Virus record (IMG/VR): IMGVR_UViG_3300032046_000003
Location: 64,001-128,000 of that record
DNA: 64,000 nt
From: a virus
Taxonomy: Duplodnaviria > Heunggongvirae > Uroviricota > Caudoviricetes
Strand: one strand, 5' to 3'
The position numbers were made by a program, and so were the translations under genes. This document shows, piece by piece, positions 2,543 to 17,240 of the stretch; position 1 is the stretch's first letter, and each line of letters starts with the position of its first letter. The notes under the pieces are model-generated. The model was not told the DNA's origin. It saw only the letters and a program-made list of their open reading frames with translations, and made no database searches.

Positions 2543-3205
2543 ATGGAATTATTAGAATGTAAAATTTGTGGACATAAAACTAAACAATTACATAATCATA
2601 TAAAATTTACTCATAAAATGAGTAGTAAAGAATATAAAGAAAAGTTTAATGTTAAGACATTATGTATTATTTGGAATAAAGGTCAAACTAGAAAAACAAA
2701 TTCAATTGTTGCTAAATATGGTGATTCTGCTACAAAAAGTGGTAAACATAGAAAACCACAACCATTATATTTCAAATGTTGGAATAAAGGATTAACAGTA
2801 GATACAGATGAAAGAATGGCTAGACTAAATGTAAAAGCTCAAAAAGCAGTTGCACAAACATTTAAAAGAAAGAATTATATATCTAGTTTAGATGAGAAAC
2901 TATATGTGTTATTAAATAAAAATAACATAAAATATGATCCACAAAAAAGTGTTACTATTGATAATAAATATGTTACGATTTTAGATGCATTTGTAGAACC
3001 TAACATTTGTATTTATGTTGATGGTAATTACTGGCATTCAATTCCAAGAGTAAAAAATAGAGATTCATTTTTTACAGATAAGTTAATAAAAATTGGATTT
3101 AAAGTAATAAGAATATGGGAAAATGAATTCGATAATTCCGAGGAAAGACTCTTAAATTTTATAAGAGAATCCGTAGAGACTATACGCAATCCTCTCAATA
3201 TTTGA
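2543..3205 (+). CDS. Intron-encoded homing endonuclease-like protein (C2H2-type Zn finger + WNKG repeats + Vsr/DUF559-like nuclease domain)
   Basis: CKICG...LHNHIKFTH Zn finger; WNKG repeats; LDAFV..NICIYVDGNYWH...GFKVIRIWE Vsr-like signature; RBS GGAGG at 2531; lies within intron 1. Confidence 0.8.
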   Translation: MELLECKICGHKTKQLHNHIKFTHKMSSKEYKEKFNVKTLCIIWNKGQTRKTNSIVAKYGDSATKSGKHRKPQPLYFKCWNKGLTVDTDERMARLNVKAQKAVAQTFKRKNYISSLDEKLYVLLNKNNIKYDPQKSVTIDNKYVTILDAFVEPNICIYVDGNYWHSIPRVKNRDSFFTDKLIKIGFKVIRIWENEFDNSEERLLNFIRESVETIRNPLNI

Positions 3206-3304
3206 GATGAAGATATAGTCCGAACTGAAAATATAAACCAATAAATTTCAGAGTTAATTAGAAATAATTAACCATCTAAAGACGGTAGATGTAACAACTG
3301 GTTG

Positions 3305-11695: not shown

Positions 11696-11710
11696 TAAGG
11701 AGGAAAAACA

Positions 11711-13111
11711 ATGAGTCCAACATTCAATGGAAAGTTTTTTAGAGTTCCGCAAGTTTCTATAAAAACAGATATATCTGGACTAACATCTACAGCGCTGGCC
11801 CCCGGTGGAATTGTAGCTATGTTAGGTTCAGCTGAAGGCGGGGAACCAAATCAGGTTACAAGATTTACTGACCCAATATCCGCCGCTAATGTTTTTAGAG
11901 GTGGGGATTTATTAGACGCCGCTACAGCCGCTTGGCAACATGGGGCACAAATAATTTATTTAACAAGAATAGGTGATGCAACTCAATCTACTCTTACTAT
12001 AAATGATGCTTCAAGCGCTGCAGTTGTAACGTTTACGTCTAAAGATTACGGTGCATATACAAATGATATAAGAGCAAAGGTCGAAGCAGCCACAACAAGT
12101 GGTAGTAAGATTACAATTCAGTTTTATGATAGCTTGACTAATAGAACGACATTAGAGGTTGGAGATAATTTGGCAAATGGTACAGCAATATCGGCCTATT
12201 TTAATGCAAATTCTAATTTAGTTGACACTGTGACAGCTTCAGCAAGTGGTATTCCTGCTAATATAACATATACCAATTTTGCAAGTGGTTCTGATGGAAC
12301 ACCTTTAATAACAAGTGATTGGACTACAGGATTAAATTTATATGCTACAGAATTTGTTAACATATTACATCCTGCGGGTTCTACAGATGCTACTGTTCAT
12401 GCTTTATTTCAAACACACGTTGAAACGTATTCTAGCCAAAAGGCAGAAAGAACAGCAATAGTCGGAGCCGCAATAGGAGACCCAGTTGGAGCTATAGGCA
12501 CAACCAATTCTTATGTAGATAGGGCCTATAACATGAATTCAGAAAGAATGGTTTTTGTTGTTCCTGGTACTGATGGTAAATCTGCGGCTTATACTGCTGC
12601 AAAGATAGTTGGAAAAGCAGCAGGAGTGGACGTAGCGACGCCGTTAACGTATCAAACAATAACCGCATCAGCAATTGAAAAGAAGTTTTCAGAATCTGAG
12701 AAAGATACTTTAGTTCAATATGGTGTATTGGCTATTGAAGAAGTTCCAGCCGGTCGAAGAATTGTGAGAGGAATAACTACAGTTCAAGACCCATCTATAA
12801 CAGATGAAGACCCATTCAAAGAGTACAGTGTTCTTAGAATAAGAGATTACGTCAATAGTAACTTAAGGTCGATACTAGAGACAACTTATATCGGTAAGAA
12901 AGGAGTATTCGGGGTTGAAAGTCAAATGCAGTCTACCACATCTTCAGTTTTAGGTAAGTTGAAAGAAGCTGAGATTATACAAGGTTATAGGAATATAACC
13001 GTTACGAAGGACCCAAATAATCCAAAAGTATTTTATATAAGTTTCCAAGTAGCGCCAATAAGTCCGATAGATTGGATATTTGTGACAACAGAGTTCGTTA
13101 ACACGATATAA
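11711..13111 (+). CDS. Contractile tail sheath protein
   Basis: G.AEGGEP, IF.GGDLL, F.SKDYG, RIVRGITT, EYSVLRIRDYV...L...YIGK, F.VAPISPIDWIFVT: sheath family motifs. Confidence 0.92.
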   Translation: MSPTFNGKFFRVPQVSIKTDISGLTSTALAPGGIVAMLGSAEGGEPNQVTRFTDPISAANVFRGGDLLDAATAAWQHGAQIIYLTRIGDATQSTLTINDASSAAVVTFTSKDYGAYTNDIRAKVEAATTSGSKITIQFYDSLTNRTTLEVGDNLANGTAISAYFNANSNLVDTVTASASGIPANITYTNFASGSDGTPLITSDWTTGLNLYATEFVNILHPAGSTDATVHALFQTHVETYSSQKAERTAIVGAAIGDPVGAIGTTNSYVDRAYNMNSERMVFVVPGTDGKSAAYTAAKIVGKAAGVDVATPLTYQTITASAIEKKFSESEKDTLVQYGVLAIEEVPAGRRIVRGITTVQDPSITDEDPFKEYSVLRIRDYVNSNLRSILETTYIGKKGVFGVESQMQSTTSSVLGKLKEAEIIQGYRNITVTKDPNNPKVFYISFQVAPISPIDWIFVTTEFVNTI

Positions 13112-13120
13112 CAGAATGAC

Positions 13121-13166
13121 AGAGACGGGTGGGTGTAGGTTATTTGTCTATGATCCGCCCGTCTCT
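13121..13166 (+). terminator. Long hairpin after the sheath gene
   Basis: AGAGACGGGTGG/CCGCCCGTCTCT 12-bp stem followed by TT. Confidence 0.55.
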
Positions 13167-13203
13167 TTAAAAAGGAGGGAAAATAACTGCTGGAGATTAT
13201 TAT

Positions 13204-14076
13204 ATGAAAGAATCTAATGTAATTGAAGGAATTGATTATATAATTTGTCCAATATGTAAAAATAAAATAAAAAAACTTACAACTTCTCATTTAAAAAGAC
13301 ATTCAATCGCTTTTAGTATTTTTAAGAAACAATTTCCAAATCAACAGTTAGTATGCAAAAATACAAGCAAATTAATTGGAGATTTACAATTGGGCAAAAA
13401 TAATCATCAATATGGCAAACCTTCTTGGAATAAAGGCCTAACTAAAGCAATAGATCGTAGAGTCGCTAAATATTCCGAATCTATTAGTAAAACGCAAAAT
13501 GGTAAAACTTATGAAGAAAGATTTGGTATAGAAAATTCTAAAAAGCACAGGAATAACATAAGTAAAGCTATGATGAATCGTTATGTTTCTGGTGTAACTA
13601 GAGCCAAGATTGGTAAAGCAAATAGTGGAAAAATAAGAACAGAAGAACACAAATGTAACATGAGAATTGCCCAAAATAGATCAGAAATTAAATTAAAAAA
13701 AAGATTGGCCATTTGTAAAAATATTAAAAAGAATGGTGGACTTTTCGCAGGTTATAATTCAAATGCCTGTGAAATTTTCAAACAGTTTGATGAATTAAAT
13801 AATACTAATGGAATTTTTGCAACAAATCCTTATGAGTTCCAGATTTTAGGTTATTCTCTCGACTATATAAACTTCGATAAAAAGCTTATAATAGAAATAG
13901 ATGAAAAGCATCACTTTGACAAAAACGGACTATTAAAATCTAAAGATGTAATTCGTCAAAGAGAAATACAAGAACTATATTCAGGTTTTAAATTTTTAAG
14001 ATTTAGGGAGGAAAATATGAGTAAAATATTGGAAATGAAAGTAGAAAATTTTAAAGGAGGTGGTATTTGTGAGTAA
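13204..14076 (+). CDS. Free-standing homing endonuclease-like protein (C2H2 finger + NUMOD3-like repeats + Vsr/DUF559-like domain), paralog A
   Basis: CPIC...SHLKRH; PSWNKGLTK; C-terminal ACE.FK.FDE.NNT.G...LGYSLDYINFDKKLIIEIDEKHH. Confidence 0.78.
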   Translation: MKESNVIEGIDYIICPICKNKIKKLTTSHLKRHSIAFSIFKKQFPNQQLVCKNTSKLIGDLQLGKNNHQYGKPSWNKGLTKAIDRRVAKYSESISKTQNGKTYEERFGIENSKKHRNNISKAMMNRYVSGVTRAKIGKANSGKIRTEEHKCNMRIAQNRSEIKLKKRLAICKNIKKNGGLFAGYNSNACEIFKQFDELNNTNGIFATNPYEFQILGYSLDYINFDKKLIIEIDEKHHFDKNGLLKSKDVIRQREIQELYSGFKFLRFREENMSKILEMKVENFKGGGICE

Positions 14077-14668
14077 CTTAGTAGGTGCGCCGCTTACAGC
14101 AATTACAGCTAATCTATTGTTTTTCGGAAAGTCTATAGGCGAATTGCAGTCTTTGTCTTGGAATGAAAATAACAATTATCGTAGGTTAAGTGCGATAGGC
14201 AACGGGGTTGATGCTATACACGTTCCTGGAGTTGCTCAATATGATTTAACAGCCAGAAGAGCGTTGTTAGAGACGGATTTGGTTTTAGATTTATTGTATA
14301 CTCTTAAACAGGGAGACTTTGCCGGCAAAACGCCATTTGTTGGAGTTGCTCCAAATAATACTAATCAAACTTCTTTATTAGCAGCCTCAGTTACGCCACA
14401 AGATTTAGTCAATGCTATTATTGCAGGTGGAGGCGGTATAGATTTGGGAGACAAAATAGTCAACTTGTATTTTGATGTGCAAATTCAAAATTCACAAGGC
14501 GCTCCAATTATGACATTTGAAGACTGCTCTTTGAATACCAGAAGAGCAACATTGGACGTTGGTGGAGTTATAATCATGTCAGATGTAACTTTATTAGCCA
14601 GAAAGAGGAAAATAGCTACAGATTCTAATAGGGCTGCAGAGTTATTAAGAGCTTTGCCAGTCGTATAA
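14069..14668 (+). CDS. Tail tube protein (paralog 1)
   Basis: Follows the sheath; IGELQSLSWNENNN...IG...HVPG..YDLTARRA...FDVQI...F.DC pattern; start moved to GTG 14069 from RBS GGAGG 14056-14060. Confidence 0.75.
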   Translation: MSNLVGAPLTAITANLLFFGKSIGELQSLSWNENNNYRRLSAIGNGVDAIHVPGVAQYDLTARRALLETDLVLDLLYTLKQGDFAGKTPFVGVAPNNTNQTSLLAASVTPQDLVNAIIAGGGGIDLGDKIVNLYFDVQIQNSQGAPIMTFEDCSLNTRRATLDVGGVIIMSDVTLLARKRKIATDSNRAAELLRALPVV

Positions 14669-14693
14669 CAACATAAAGGAAAAATAAAATGCC

Positions 14694-14746
14694 GGGCCTA
14701 AGGTTGACCTCATGAATCAATCGACGGTGCTTGTACACCAAGGCCC
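14694..14746 (+). ncRNA. 53-nt three-way-junction element, copy 3 (free-standing, no intron)
   Basis: GGGCCT-AAG-GTTGA/TCAAT-CGAC-GGTG/CACC-A-AGGCCC; no group I R/S elements nearby. Confidence 0.75.
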
Positions 14747-14769
14747 TAAATCTTTACAAGGAGATTAAT

Positions 14770-14835
14770 ATGAGTTCATTTATAAAAGGGCATATTGCTT
14801 GGAACAAAGGATTAACCAAAGAGACAAATGAATAA
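14770..14835 (+). pseudogene. Stump of a homing endonuclease gene (MSSFIKGHIAWNKGLTKETNE*)
   Basis: RBS GGAG; F.KGH..WNKGLTKET matches the repeats of the 3716 and 13204 endonucleases; stops after 21 aa. Confidence 0.7.
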
Positions 14836-14868
14836 AATATTAGAAATTAAAATTAATAAAGGAAACTT

Positions 14869-15414
14869 ATGCCTGGAATTATAGGATCTCCATTAACCGC
14901 GTTAACCGCAAATATAACTTTTGACGGTCAAAAAATAGGACAACTGCAAGAGATAACTGTGGAGGAAAACTACAACTTAAAGCCTATTGAACAAATAGGT
15001 TCTAGCTACATCACTGAGTTCTTACCTGGTACGTATAGCGGAAGAATCGTTGCTGCTCGTGCTTTGATCGAAGGAGATTTATTTTTTGATAAACTTACTC
15101 CCGGCTTAACTTCTTCACAAGCACTTACAACAGTAGCAAACGATATGCTAGGTGATGGCTCAGTCAACATAAGTCCCGTAATAAAAGTGTTCGAAGGGAT
15201 AAACGACTTTTGGAATCAGATTTTTTTAGGAAAGGCAACAAAAGACAGAATAAACTTTGTTGTTTATTTTGATATAGAGTTGATAAATCCTAATAATGAA
15301 ATATTTGCAAAGTATTCTAAATGTGCAATATCCGCAAAAACGCTTTCAGTACAGTTAAATAATATAGTTATTATGCAGAATATTACATGTCTTTTCCAAA
15401 ATAGGTCAGTATAA
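14869..15414 (+). CDS. Tail tube-like protein (paralog 2)
   Basis: N-terminus GSPLTALTANI matches GAPLTAITANL of paralog 1; IGQLQEITVEENYN..PI..IG....EFLPG. Confidence 0.72.
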   Translation: MPGIIGSPLTALTANITFDGQKIGQLQEITVEENYNLKPIEQIGSSYITEFLPGTYSGRIVAARALIEGDLFFDKLTPGLTSSQALTTVANDMLGDGSVNISPVIKVFEGINDFWNQIFLGKATKDRINFVVYFDIELINPNNEIFAKYSKCAISAKTLSVQLNNIVIMQNITCLFQNRSV

Positions 15415-16046
15415 TGAAAAATAAAAGACATGGTAAAACAGGAAGACACTGGAAGTTATCTGGAGAAACTAAAAAACGCCAAAGTGAGGCCAAAATAGGA
15501 GATAAGAATCCATCATATGGTAAGCCTGCATATAATAGAGATGTTTCATCATCTGAACAATCTAAACTAAAAAATAGATTAGCTCATTTGGGTAAAAAAC
15601 AATCCAAAGAAATTATAGAAAAACGATTTGCCTGGTTAAAGGATAATAACAAAAGATTAGAAACTAATAAAAAAAGAAGTAAATCTTTGTCTGGAAGAAT
15701 TCAATCTGATGAACATAGACTTAATTCTAGAAAAGCTGCTATTAATAGAATTACGAGAAATAATGGAATTTGCAGACCTAATTTTAATCCAAAAGCATGT
15801 GAATTTTTTAAAAGCTATGATGAACATAATAATACAAACGGACAATATGCAACTAGTGGTGGAGAATATGAAATAAAAGATTTGGGTTATTTTCTTGACT
15901 ATATTAATTTTGATAAAAAACTTATAATGGAATTTGATGAGAAATATCATGATAAACGAAAAGATAAAGACGTAATTCGTCAAAAAGAGATTCAGCAATT
16001 ATATCCAGATTTTAAATTTATAAGAATAAAACAGGAGAGCATATAA
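15414..16046 (+). CDS. Free-standing homing endonuclease-like protein, paralog B
   Basis: NUMOD3-like N-terminus (IGDKNPSYGK); PNFNPKACEFFKSYDEHNNTNG...LGYFLDYINFDKKLIMEFDEKYH. Confidence 0.78.
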   Translation: MKNKRHGKTGRHWKLSGETKKRQSEAKIGDKNPSYGKPAYNRDVSSSEQSKLKNRLAHLGKKQSKEIIEKRFAWLKDNNKRLETNKKRSKSLSGRIQSDEHRLNSRKAAINRITRNNGICRPNFNPKACEFFKSYDEHNNTNGQYATSGGEYEIKDLGYFLDYINFDKKLIMEFDEKYHDKRKDKDVIRQKEIQQLYPDFKFIRIKQESI

Positions 16047-16047
16047 G

Positions 16048-16731
16048 GTGTATATCCGTCAGGTAATTACAGCCCAAAACTGCATTGTAGAAATGCCCAA
16101 GGGACATGAATGCGGATATTTGCAGAACTTAACTATAAATGCCAATTATAATTTACAGCCCGTAAGAAATTTGTATCAGCATACAATTCAACATCATGCT
16201 TTAGGCATAGTTGAATATAACGCAACAGCCCAGAGAGCCTTTGTAGAATTAGATTCTATTTTTGGTAATGATAAAAATATTTTGGATTTCTTGAATGGTA
16301 TACAAGGAATAAAGAATACTGTTGGAAATTTAAATAGCGCTGGAGACCAATTGAGGCAATTTATGGATAGCGTCGGAACTGTGGCAAGATCGATATATGA
16401 TTTTGCTACTAGTTTTACAACTCCCAAAATTGATGAAATAGAAGACACTATAAATAAACTTTTAACTGGTGAAAAGAATATTGGAGATTTATTTACAATA
16501 TTTGAATTTGATATAAGAGTAACAAATCCAATTGTAAAATTTCCAAATTTCGAGAGTTCAGAACTTAACGAGTTTTTAAACAGAACAATAGGGAACAGAC
16601 AAGAATTATATATTTTAAATGGATGTAAGGTTTCGTCTAGAAGTACAATAATCACACCCGCTAATGTGGCGGTAATGGAGAATATAAATATAGTCGCTAG
16701 GAATCTTACAGACTCGGTTTTTAAACAGTAA
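16048..16731 (+). CDS. Tail tube-like protein (paralog 3, divergent)
   Basis: GYLQNLTINANYNLQPV...YNATAQRA...FEFDIRV...GCKVSSRS...VMENI shares the pattern of the other two tube proteins; GTG start. Confidence 0.6.
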   Translation: MYIRQVITAQNCIVEMPKGHECGYLQNLTINANYNLQPVRNLYQHTIQHHALGIVEYNATAQRAFVELDSIFGNDKNILDFLNGIQGIKNTVGNLNSAGDQLRQFMDSVGTVARSIYDFATSFTTPKIDEIEDTINKLLTGEKNIGDLFTIFEFDIRVTNPIVKFPNFESSELNEFLNRTIGNRQELYILNGCKVSSRSTIITPANVAVMENINIVARNLTDSVFKQ

Positions 16732-16745
16732 AGGGGGGTGCAGAA

Positions 16746-17240
16746 ATGGAAGAAGAAAAAAAAGTAGAAGATAAAAAAGAAGTACAAGAATTGGATCCTA
16801 TTAAGTTGGCAAAAATAGAATTGGGCAAAGATTACAAGGCTACGATAACCACATGTTTGATAGATGAAAAGGATAAAAATAGGAGAATTAACTTTCAATT
16901 TTCGGTTCACGTGCCTTCGGTTAAAGAAGAGCTTCAGGTTAATGTTAGAGAGCAAGAAATAATTGGAAGTAATTTAAACAATATGTTGGTATTGACAGCC
17001 GTAAGGATGATAGCTGTTTTAGACATAGTGGTCGATGGGATAACAATGATTGATGATGAGGGTAAGGCTATAGTTATTGATTTATCATTCTGGCAAATGA
17101 TACAACAAATGAAGGCTGTGGGAAGAGCTTACAAAGAAATAGTTATTCCTTTATATACTAAATTTATGGAATTTCAACAATCTATAGAAACTGACTTTGA
17201 TTCATTAAAAAAAGCATTAGCACAGCTTGGGAAGAAATAA
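16746..17240 (+). CDS. Tail assembly chaperone (gpG-like)
   Basis: Two genes upstream of the tape measure, ends with an A7 slippery run. Confidence 0.75.
   Translation: MEEEKKVEDKKEVQELDPIKLAKIELGKDYKATITTCLIDEKDKNRRINFQFSVHVPSVKEELQVNVREQEIIGSNLNNMLVLTAVRMIAVLDIVVDGITMIDDEGKAIVIDLSFWQMIQQMKAVGRAYKEIVIPLYTKFMEFQQSIETDFDSLKKALAQLGKK

Follow-up and report, generated by a model that had tools for sequence, protein, structure and literature searches.

A probable decayed homing-endonuclease cassette in the first codons of a phage tail-tube gene

The homing endonuclease genes (HEGs) I-TevI, I-TevII, I-TevIII and segB of the T-even phages, and mobE of phage Aeh1, carry RNA structures that sequester their ribosome-binding sites (PMC2988022). 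Such genes pass through a cycle of invasion, decay and loss (PMC2988022), and the truncated I-TevIII of T4 is a degenerate homing-endonuclease gene (PMC2790892). One-sided homing, with illegitimate repair of double-strand breaks at microhomologies, has been described in T4 (Parker, Belisle & Belfort 1999, as cited in PMC2988022).

We analyzed the 200-base interval that separates two tail-tube genes in an uncultured 178-kb phage, within a window of 64,000 nucleotides (the whole stretch of DNA under analysis, to which coordinates refer unless marked as genome). This interval is probably what remains of a free-standing homing-endonuclease cassette after insertion into the initial codons of the second tube gene and subsequent decay. 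It would consist, in order, of the former tube1-tube2 spacer that carries the former tube-2 ribosome site and ATGCC(GGG), an intact leader of ~75 nt, the initial 20 codons of a nuclease of DUF559/Vsr-like type whose N-terminus is NUMOD3-like, a deletion junction, and the last 9 conserved codons of the nuclease running over the present ribosome site and ATG of tube 2.

Table 1. Features of the tube1-tube2 interval and its neighbors (window coordinates).
Feature	Position	Strand	Evidence or remarks
Intact DUF559-type endonuclease gene 5' of tube 1	13204..14076	+	Pfam DUF559, E 2e-6
Tail-tube paralog 1 (tube 1)	14069..14668	+	ORF; GTG start; stop TAA 14666-68
Residual ancestral tube1-tube2 spacer with putative relic tube-2 start	14669..14693	+	spacing as in empty alleles
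Imperfect direct repeat, left copy (ATAAAGGAAA ... ATGCCGGG)	14673..14696	+	sequence reading; flanks cassette
53-nt three-way-junction element	14694-14746	+	MFE fold and covariance model
SD hairpin	14749..14766	+	arms 14749-54/14761-66, loop UACAAG 14755-60
Stump SD AAGGAG	14758-63	+	half in kissing loop, half in 3' arm of hairpin
Endonuclease 5' remnant	14770..14835	+	ORF, 21 codons (MSSFIKGHIAWNKGLTKETNE-stop); WNKGLTKET, NUMOD3-like N-terminus
Deletion junction	14826..14830	+	local alignments; +1 frame shift
Endonuclease 3' remnant	14828..14884	+	+1 frame; MNKILEIKI (14828-54)
Direct repeat, right copy, working tube-2 SD and start (ATAAAGGAAACTT ATGCCTGG)	14856..14876	+	sequence reading
Tail-tube paralog 2 (tube 2)	14869..15414	+	181 aa, MPGIIGSPLTA...; homologs 50-71% identity
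Intact DUF559/NUMOD3 endonuclease gene, tube 2/tube 3 interval	15414..16046	+	ORF and Pfam

The locus resembles the T-even systems in that a cis RNA structure lies directly 5' of a phage endonuclease ORF, where it is predicted to hide the Shine-Dalgarno sequence (SD), and in that intron-borne and free-standing genes both carry such structures. The T-even structure is one long hairpin, whereas here a short hairpin stem and a kissing pair of 6-7 nt with a separate three-way junction would hold the SD together, and unlike the T-even hairpins this module is conserved, with covariation, across three nuclease families and four contigs. Release in T4 comes from a late promoter inside the hairpin. As with other defunct HEGs, a nuclease ORF inactivated by deletion has persisted, within a fixed population, at the site to which it homed; unlike those cases, the leader appears to be preserved along with the two ends of the ORF and a remnant of the start of the host gene, so that the insertion and deletion junctions can still be read, and the same junction holds independent remnants in two other lineages, L087/88 and L090.

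The C-terminus of tube 1 is colinear to its end with tube-1 homologs in relatives (ELLRALPVV-stop versus ELNNALPST-stop in L045), as is the N-terminus of tube 2, which excludes a missing exon. The cluster of tube 2 has a precomputed annotation as PF26461 (Phi812_tail_tube); a direct Pfam scan of tube 2 returned nothing at E 0.01. The 3' end (…MSKILEMKVENFKGGGICE-stop) of the intact nuclease gene ahead of tube 1 overlaps the tube-1 SD and GTG, and this gene can serve as an architectural model for the decayed copy. The intact nuclease gene behind tube 2 starts with an ATG that overlaps the tube-2 stop (TAATG) and has no structured leader; tube 2 and tube 3 abut in relatives. A blastn search with distant settings of 11700-16800 against a GenBank phage collection gave zero matches. 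Scanning 13000-16200 for promoters and terminators gave no signal above chance, the sigma-70-type consensus being one that may not represent the late motif of this phage.

We determined the structure and distribution of the leader. The first-pass annotation had placed an intact copy of a 53-nt element at 14694-14746, and both fold and score bear this out. Stem I (14694-98/14742-46), hairpin A (14702-22) and hairpin B (14726-39, loop CUUGUA at 14730-35) consist of standard pairs throughout and are joined by the junctions UAA / GAN / NA. A covariance model (R1) built from five genome copies matched the orphan copy with 96.7 bits (E 1.6e-20), the match spanning genome 78686-78776 (window 14686-14776), the whole leader. 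An exact 25-mer of the element occurs beyond chance expectation. The three copies noted in the first pass hold for the window, but the genome has six: three before intact free-standing endonuclease genes (genome 16443, 57016 and 58087), two in capsid-gene introns, and the orphan. The intact cassette whose leader occupies genome 16439-16518 matches 14694-14773 by BLAST with 82.5% identity (E 5e-18), and the homology starts exactly at 14694, the first stem base. Because three copies precede intact free-standing nuclease genes, the folded leader is supported as moving with the nuclease gene and not with the intron, in agreement with the original proposal.

We counted 12 copies in total on four contigs, and every copy seen was accompanied by a nuclease ORF or remnant, so that the first-pass suggestion of a distinct mobile unit finds no support. 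The helices of the 12 copies, parsed by script, showed covariation throughout, and stem I and hairpin B had no non-pairs; the MAFFT alignment was too shifted in its 3' half for column-wise pseudoknot counts. The nucleases behind the element belong to different families (three in all), DUF559/Vsr-like and HNH-related, the HNH assignment of the intron 2 nuclease being based on its motifs and its homology to further ORFs in the genome, with only a weak NUMOD3 match in Pfam. Rfam did not match the element at the gathering threshold or at E up to 10. In pattern scans of viral sequences, a first pattern gave 25 matches with real copies in L023 alone and a second led to L057, while a pattern specific for hairpin A, used on viral and metagenome sequences, led to L066 and L078 only, its ~20 other matches being unrelated. 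None of the pattern-scan matches lay at a tube junction. In some relatives there is an extended -10 box just 5' of the whole element.

Three other descriptions of the element were considered and rejected. A position between P7 and P7' of the introns does not fit, the R-like block lying at the 3' ends of the intron ORFs. Among the small self-cleaving ribozymes considered, the hammerhead is likewise a poor description, the junction lengths of 3, 3 and 2 nt being unlike its core. A leader peptide, the mini-ORF M-G-L-R-L-N-stop, was set aside as well: an NUG abuts the stem in just 8 of the 12 copies, an SD is usually missing, and the G of the start codon is the first stem base.

The element most likely acts as a kissing-loop translation lock on the nuclease SD. 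CUUGUA (14730-35) in hairpin B is complementary to UACAAG (14755-60) in the SD hairpin at all six positions, and all 12 copies have full complementarity between these loops over 6-7 nt, despite 11 distinct loop sequences. Among the first 11 copies, which the permutation test covered (the twelfth, L066b, came later), cross-pairings averaged 3.7 nt, and 0 of 20,000 permutations equaled the observed pairing. From this covariation, the three-way junction would position hairpin B so that its entire loop pairs with that of the following hairpin; as the stem and loop of the latter hairpin include the SD, the ribosome site of the nuclease would be locked and translation low or conditional. Purine-type riboswitches are three-way-junction RNAs in which loop-loop tertiary contacts control the SD. 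The element shares with them the three-way junction, conserved junction bases and a kissing contact predicted to decide access to the SD; it differs in that the kissing partner lies outside the junction, Rfam families do not match and no ligand is indicated.

Behind the leader, the first-pass annotation had reported a ribosome-binding site and a 21-codon endonuclease remnant. Both are present, with the ATG at 14770 and not 14771, in the expected place behind the leader, but a 3' remnant at 14828-14884 had been missed. The stump resembles the N-termini of other nuclease genes by tblastn and blastn (e.g., MAKKGCIPWNKNLTKETDE at genome 27282), and WNKGLTKET resembles stretches of paralogs that match NUMOD3 only below threshold. 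Pfam returned nothing for the 21-aa stump or the tail, including PF07460 (NUMOD3) and PF04480; the latter, the DUF559/Vsr-like (PD-(D/E)xK) nuclease domain, is matched by the intact paralogs and is deleted in the orphan. N-terminal homology stops at ~14826 and C-terminal homology begins at ~14825-28, with AAATGAA assignable to either side, leaving an ORF cut to 21 codons plus a tail in the +1 frame. MNKILEIKI fits the C-terminal tail of one nuclease subgroup, M-x-K-I-L-E/Q-I/M-K-I/V, and the remnant reads on as NKGNLCLEL-stop over the tube-2 SD and ATG. The top three blastp-short matches for the tail were the extreme C-termini of three DUF559-type nucleases, at genome 146585 (E 3.8e-5), genome 94267 (E 0.003) and genome 77204, which is window 13204 (E 0.013); the 3' remnant has matches at the DNA level as well. 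The tail overlaps the tube-2 start just as ORF 13204..14076 overlaps the tube-1 start. With the original nuclease reconstructed from its two ends, a single internal deletion would suffice to explain its decay. Both retained ends are without further damage. That the nuclease decayed while the RNA fold stayed intact therefore holds as fact, while the idea that the RNA has long outlived the nuclease finds no evidence, because the kept ORF ends are undamaged too.

The cassette is flanked by what appears to be a duplicated tube-2 start. On the left, an SD (AAAGGA, 14675-80) precedes ATG (14689-91) and CC, reading ATG CCG GGC CTA and open for 8 codons; the working start has its SD at 14859-64 and reads ATG CCT GGA ATT. 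A plain local alignment of the two was unexceptional, the tube-2 start ranking 88 among 16,492 NTG windows, with several ordinary gene starts scoring higher. We replaced this indecisive alignment by a motif count. The + strand of the 178-kb genome has 13 occurrences of AGGA-N5-10-ATGCC, of which 11 are starts of ORFs of at least 181 aa; the other two are a 17-codon frame, at genome 44700, and the putative relic, open for 8 codons. Requiring NGG as well leaves 3 (SD-ATGCCNGG), two of which flank the cassette, so the duplication claimed in the first pass is real. In the "MPGL" relic, GG-CUA belongs to the stem of the element itself, and an NUG adjoins the stem in 8 of the 12 copies (counted by eye in 5' flanks and alignments); it is the SD, ATG and CC, their position, and the parallels in L045 and L087, and these only, that argue for a relic.

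We also investigated the tube1-tube2 junction in relatives, which came from a protein search and from look-ups of contigs. The site is empty in most of them, with a spacer of 13-20 nt followed by ATGCCGGG or a similar sequence (6 nt in G001). Such empty alleles were found in at least five lineages, those with 13-20 nt and tube 2 proteins 50-71% identical being L045/46, L042-44, L091 and a P0003 contig, and support the earlier claim that the cassette was inserted at the tube-2 start. The putative relic ATGCCGGG lies 20 nt past the tube-1 stop, and its counterpart in the closest relative, L045, 19 nt past. A full-length nuclease allele, the other state that the first pass had proposed to look for, was not found at this junction in any relative, and a search for related loci among viral contigs with tube 2 gave no confirmed relatives. 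L086 is a near-identical strain with the same arrangement (7 differences in 3,986 nt), and the gene spacing is equal in two further assemblies; this near-identity gives no time depth for telling recent decay from selection on the RNA. The L087/L088 lineage appears to have arrived independently at a relic start with a rebuilt start downstream. There, a nuclease remnant of 72 aa is fused to SD and ATGCCAGGAATAATA (MPGII) and shares 41% identity (E 1e-12) with the N-terminus of ORF 13204..14076, and the working start ATGTCTCCAGGAATAATAGGA lies behind it, with a tube-1-type SD and ATGTCT; the insert is flanked by a 12-nt repeat, CCAGGAATAATA, and the three-way-junction element is absent. In L090 the junction is also filled by a short remnant.

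Other spacers hold unrelated structures, namely a GC hairpin with a U-run in L047-49 (z -3.5), a long stem with a U-run in L050/51 and a hairpin in L087, so structure at this position is at least tolerated. R1 did not detect the element in the structured spacers of L050/51, L087/88 or L090. The 5' AUGGGCUAAG of L050 and an anti-SD loop in L090 give an impression of likeness to the element.

We suggest that the nuclease hopped between paralogous tube genes. A nuclease of the same family, encoded 5' of tube 1, would have cleaved the paralogous tube-2 gene close to its conserved 5' end, and the nuclease gene would have been copied during repair along with the start region that its 3' end overlaps; joins at microhomology would then have left the recipient's own start as the left relic. 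ORF 13204..14076, the nuclease on the tube-1 side, is without this leader, and the donor locus is one that we infer. One-sided homing would explain the ectopic gain, the homology on one side, the junctions of a few bases and the possibly duplicated target; the present case differs in being deduced from sequence comparison and in that donor and recipient, as proposed, are tube-gene paralogs within one genome. Because the 3' end of the nuclease ORF overlaps the working start, that start seems to have come with the cassette. The first-pass view of a start regenerated downstream thus stands as to a rebuilt start, paralleled in L087/L088, but an origin de novo looks doubtful. A later single internal deletion of roughly 0.5-0.8 kb would have taken out the nuclease body, with the leader still perfect since it has not been hit so far, not necessarily since it is needed.

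A different account of the left flank, which we regard as unlikely, takes the upstream SD and ATGCC for the A/U-rich 5' flank of the element or a chance signal and leaves the tube-2 start untouched. The NUG next to stem I, giving mini-ORFs such as MGLRLN-stop, the GGAAAAAAGUUAUG preceding the intron 2 copy, which resembles the orphan's GGAAAAAUAAAAUG, and the rank of only 88th for the two-start alignment would all fit it. It is opposed by the other free-standing copies, in which the stop of the upstream gene adjoins or overlaps the element and no extra SD is present, by between-cassette BLAST homology that begins at the first stem base, by the rarity of SD + ATGCC (11 of 13 being real starts), by the agreement with L045 in 8-mer and spacing, and by L087/88, where a relic, a rebuilt start and a 12-nt repeat occur without the element. 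Far less credible is the reading of the interval as the remains of a group I intron that interrupted what was then one tube gene, which the data already contradict. Two of the six element copies do lie inside capsid-gene group I introns (weak Intron_gpI matches, 18 and 16.6 bits), but Rfam had no match in 14550-14950, and the exact core blocks are confined to those introns: the R-like block (CCGTAGAGACTATACG) has window sites at 3171 and 4278 only, and the S-like block (GATATAGTCCGAAC) exact sites at 3212 and 4322 only, its six 3-mismatch matches all lying in other parts of the window and away from 14.7 kb. In all relatives, tube 1 and tube 2 form complete, separate genes, each with its own stop and start. 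Three element copies stand free with intact nucleases. The group I core is thus absent, as the first pass had stated; relatives have no such intron here, and the relic-start pattern recurs in L087/L088.

A decayed cassette also accounts for the interval better than co-option of the leader, in which selection would have kept the RNA after the death of the nuclease. This is improbable in our judgment. The RNA might shield tube-2 translation against tube 1, determine the tube1:tube2 ratio, or stabilize or process the late mRNA, and the intact helices and 6-nt kissing pair of the orphan, the same arrangement in a strain from a second sample with the same gene spacing in two further assemblies, and the unrelated structures in the same spacer of other relatives would all be in keeping with such a role. 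However, the retained nuclease codons are equally undamaged, making intactness nothing special to the RNA; the lock targets the SD of the stump, not that of tube 2 100 nt downstream; a spacer of 13-20 nt is enough for most relatives; the strains compared are 99.8% identical and do not probe constraint; and 13000-16200 holds no terminator- or promoter-like signal above chance. More doubtful still is a structured RNA switch kept between late structural genes and opened or closed by a trans factor or small molecule; if true, the 12-copy family would be a new class of regulated RNA switch carried by selfish nuclease genes.

As a decayed cassette, the interval is a clear and fairly ordinary snapshot of the invasion and decay of selfish nuclease genes. 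The orphan copy delimits the mobile cassette with single-base precision, from the first nucleotide of the outer stem to the nuclease tail over the host-gene start, and, as an intact leader with a harmless 21-codon ORF, it is a natural construct for the proposed kissing-loop lock. It also points to a route by which a free-standing nuclease gene may insert into the opening codons of an essential structural gene and leave it functional, the landing being non-lethal because the cassette would supply a replacement ribosome site and start codon. This route is documented by the orphan, the empty sites and the independent case in L087/88.

The interval between the tail-tube paralogs tube 1 and tube 2 appears to be what is left of a homing-endonuclease cassette: orphaned, deleted internally, and with an intact leader that would act as a translation lock. 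This reading, in which an old and an imported tube-2 start flank the cassette, bears out the main inference of the first-pass annotation. The virus record is complete (178,280 bp, direct terminal repeats; the window is its bases 64001-128000) and carries roughly twenty nuclease-like genes, with 21 ORFs matching endonuclease seeds by BLAST. A DUF559-type endonuclease gene or remnant occupies 3 of the 3 junctions of the sheath-tube1-tube2-tube3 series. The order of three tandem paralogs behind the sheath is kept across the phage group (window 11711-16731; related contigs L039, L042, L044, L047, L050, L087).

Positions and spacer lengths of the features (plain numbers, window; "genome", whole record; L, G and P handles, related phage or metagenome contigs)
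Feature	Position or length	Remark
Sheath	11711..13111	tail module; its genes are listed in order
DUF559-type endonuclease gene	13204..14076	between sheath and tube 1
Tube paralog 1	14069..14668	
Interval under study	200 nt	between tube 1 and tube 2
Tube paralog 2	14869..15414	
Second DUF559/NUMOD3 endonuclease gene	15414..16046	between tube 2 and tube 3
Tube paralog 3	16048..16731	
Element copies	genome 16443, 57016, 58087	each upstream of intact free-standing endonuclease gene
Element copies	2471, 3646	inside capsid-gene introns
Element copy six	14694-14746	orphan between tube 1 and tube 2
TGATATAAT sites	L023:6840-6868, L023:4343-4371, L057:1204-1232	
L045/46 tube1-tube2 spacer	19 nt	tube-2 start ATGCCGGGAGTAATC (MPGVIG)
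L042/43 tube1-tube2 spacer	20 nt	
L044 tube1-tube2 spacer	18 nt	
L091 tube1-tube2 spacer	17 nt	
P0003 contig tube1-tube2 spacer	13 nt	
G001 tube1-tube2 spacer	6 nt	

The orphan element folds as a three-way junction and scores 96.7 bits (E 1.6e-20) with R1, a covariance model of five genome copies. Downstream lie a short hairpin with AAGGAG, ATG 14770 and a 21-codon frame, so the element, ribosome-binding site, start and stump described in the first-pass annotation are all there. It had counted this as a third copy; the copy is real, but the genome holds six, and the three before free-standing genes bear out its view that the element accompanies endonucleases outside introns. Related contigs gave six further copies: three from L023, two from L057 and one further from L066 (an L078 copy repeats one already found in L057 and was left out of the count of 12). 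The nucleases behind these copies belong to more than one family, with DUF559/Vsr-like domains (Pfam) in the free-standing ones and intron 1 and an intron-2 ORF classed as HNH-related from its homologs in the genome; the leader RNA thus does not go with one enzyme alone.

Hairpin B and the hairpin that follows it have fully matching loops. In each of the 12 copies, which between them have 11 different loop sequences, all 6-7 nt of the hairpin-B loop are exactly complementary, in reverse orientation, to the loop of the following hairpin; the Shine-Dalgarno (SD) sequence forms the 3' side of the latter. When loops were swapped between the first 11 copies, 3.7 bases were complementary on average, and the observed total was reached in 0 of 20,000 permutations. 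The 12-copy tally showed no mispairs in hairpin B or the outer stem, with covariation in all helices. Because of this complementarity and covariation, the leader most likely locks the nuclease ribosome site through a kissing-loop contact plus a stem. Hairpins that hide the RBS of I-TevI, I-TevII, I-TevIII, segB and mobE (PMC2988022) are of the same kind, and the lock would be a more elaborate version of them.

The loop of hairpin A, ACCUCAUGAAU, is common to three copies in three phages (window 14702-14722, L023:5656-5676, L057:273-293), while in the remaining copies the top of this hairpin differs and is more fully paired, which may point to two allelic forms. In three intron-borne copies of relatives, TGATATAAT, an extended -10 box, ends about 8 nt 5' of the element's first base, a position from which the nuclease may have its own transcript starting with the lock. 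A metagenome pattern scan (L061-L085) gave about 20 of 25 exact GACCTCATGAATCNATCGA matches that were not element copies, similar to the roughly 20 estimated by chance for 18 specified bases; these could be meaningless or a conserved coding motif elsewhere. The gene at 15414..16046 has no structured leader, and its ATG overlaps the tube-2 stop (TAATG; 15412-15416), which suggests translational coupling, an expression strategy unlike that of the locked cassettes. A very stable hairpin of about 19 bp (13125-13175; whole-leader MFE -32 kcal/mol) between the sheath stop and the gene at 13204 is a third leader type for this DUF559-type family.

The +1 frame of 14828-14884 reads MNKILEIKI-NKGNLCLEL*, and the three genome ORFs (of 268) that match it best are DUF559 nucleases, each at its extreme C-terminus (E 3.8e-5, 0.003 and 0.013). 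They include the neighbour 13204..14076, whose end (MSKILEMKVENFKGGGICE*) covers the tube-1 SD and GTG just as the remnant tail covers the tube-2 SD and ATG. Homology to the N-termini of other nuclease genes stops near 14826 and C-terminal homology runs from 14825-28; since the two meet there, one deletion inside the gene, shifting the frame by +1, is enough to explain the stop at 14833, and by these alignments both ends of the gene survive. Neither retained end has further damage, which argues for one event, probably recent, and against prolonged decay in which the RNA was protected. The proposal that the nuclease decayed while the fold stayed intact is upheld, the leader being perfect and the gene dead. 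At the N-terminus the stump most closely resembles a NUMOD3-like nuclease-type gene of 180 aa (MAKKGCIPWNKNLTKETDE...) outside the window (genome 27150-27824); a tRNA-like gene, recognized by eye, ends about 45 nt before its start.

An SD followed by ATG CCG GGC CTA lies 20 nt past the tube-1 stop, and the working tube-2 start, an SD with ATG CCT GGA ATT, is 180 nt downstream of it. The plain similarity of the two, proposed as a duplicated tube-gene start, is unremarkable (rank 88 of 16,492), and GG-CUA of the upstream one is part of the element's stem. Along the coding strand, however, AGGA-N5-10-ATGCC is rare: of its 13 occurrences 11 are at real gene starts, and with NGG added three remain, two of them at this interval. 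Inter-cassette homology begins exactly at 14694, so 14669-14693 is local DNA, and the relic ATGCCGGG, 20 nt after the tube-1 stop, agrees with L045 in sequence and in position. The upstream signal is probably the recipient's original tube-2 start.

In the contigs that carry tube-2 homologs (50-71% identity), empty sites are the rule, consistent with insertion at the tube-gene start as first proposed. Empty alleles were thus found, but no full-length nuclease at the tube1-tube2 junction among the relatives sampled, nor any in the sheath-tube1-tube2-tube3 series where neighbours were readable. L087/L088 offer an independent parallel. Their 279-nt spacer has a hairpin and then SD+ATGCCAGGAATAATA, which is how tube 2 starts in the empty-site cousin L050/51; joined to it in frame is a zinc-finger fragment of 72 aa that shares 41% identity (E 1e-12) with the N-terminal part of the nuclease 13204..14076. 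The fragment's 3' end covers the working start, ATG TCT + CCAGGAATAATAGGA, which a tube-1-type SD (AAAAAGGGTGGTT; compared with tube-1 leaders) precedes, and a 12-nt repeat (CCAGGAATAATA) bounds the insert. It looks as if a nuclease gene moved from the sheath-tube1 to the paralogous tube1-tube2 junction, carrying the start region along, a pattern that would fit the one-sided, microhomology-joined break repair described in T4 (Parker et al. 1999, as cited in PMC2988022). The first-pass annotation had the window's downstream start regenerated; old and new starts do flank the cassette, but the new one is better read as imported.

A third short junction remnant, a 61-aa zinc-finger piece similar to the intron-1 nuclease (E 1e-5), lies in L090 behind a structured leader unlike the window element. 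The 286-nt spacer there (L090:699-984) comprises an outer stem of 8-9 bp, an inner hairpin with a UCCU loop that could pair with the SD, a hairpin containing the SD, and the remnant, which reads across the tube-2 SD; the spacer does not match R1 and may be a diverged member of the leader family. The 88-nt spacer at L050:3913-4000 (also L051) opens with AAAUGGGCUAAG, resembling the element's 5' end, and closes with GCCCAUUU, after which comes a U-run; its interior is unstructured (z -0.4), it does not match R1, and a leader in a later stage of decay or an unrelated terminator are both conceivable. Another relative has, between tube 1 and tube 2, a 10-bp GC-rich hairpin with a T-run (L047:1164-1223, also L048, L049; z -3.5), which resembles an intrinsic terminator or attenuator.

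Intron debris would be another origin for the interval, but a group I core is absent, as first noted: Rfam gave no match there, the R-like block and exact S-like block copies of the two capsid introns were found only in those introns, and tube 1 and tube 2 are colinear with homologs to their last and first residues, respectively. That the leader keeps a role after nuclease loss is possible but unsupported. An L023 intron nuclease is likewise frameshifted relative to its L066 ortholog behind an intact leader. In the window the lock would act on the SD of the stump, not that of tube 2, and the single other strain for comparison is, at 99.8% identity, too close to gauge constraint. The L023 gene (4452-5401, behind leader copy L023c) is split over two frames against the 322-aa ortholog (tblastn frames 2 and 1), either a second broken nuclease or an assembly error. 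Read as an orphaned cassette, the interval is a variant within the translational control of homing-endonuclease genes and their invasion and decay, and an unusually legible example.
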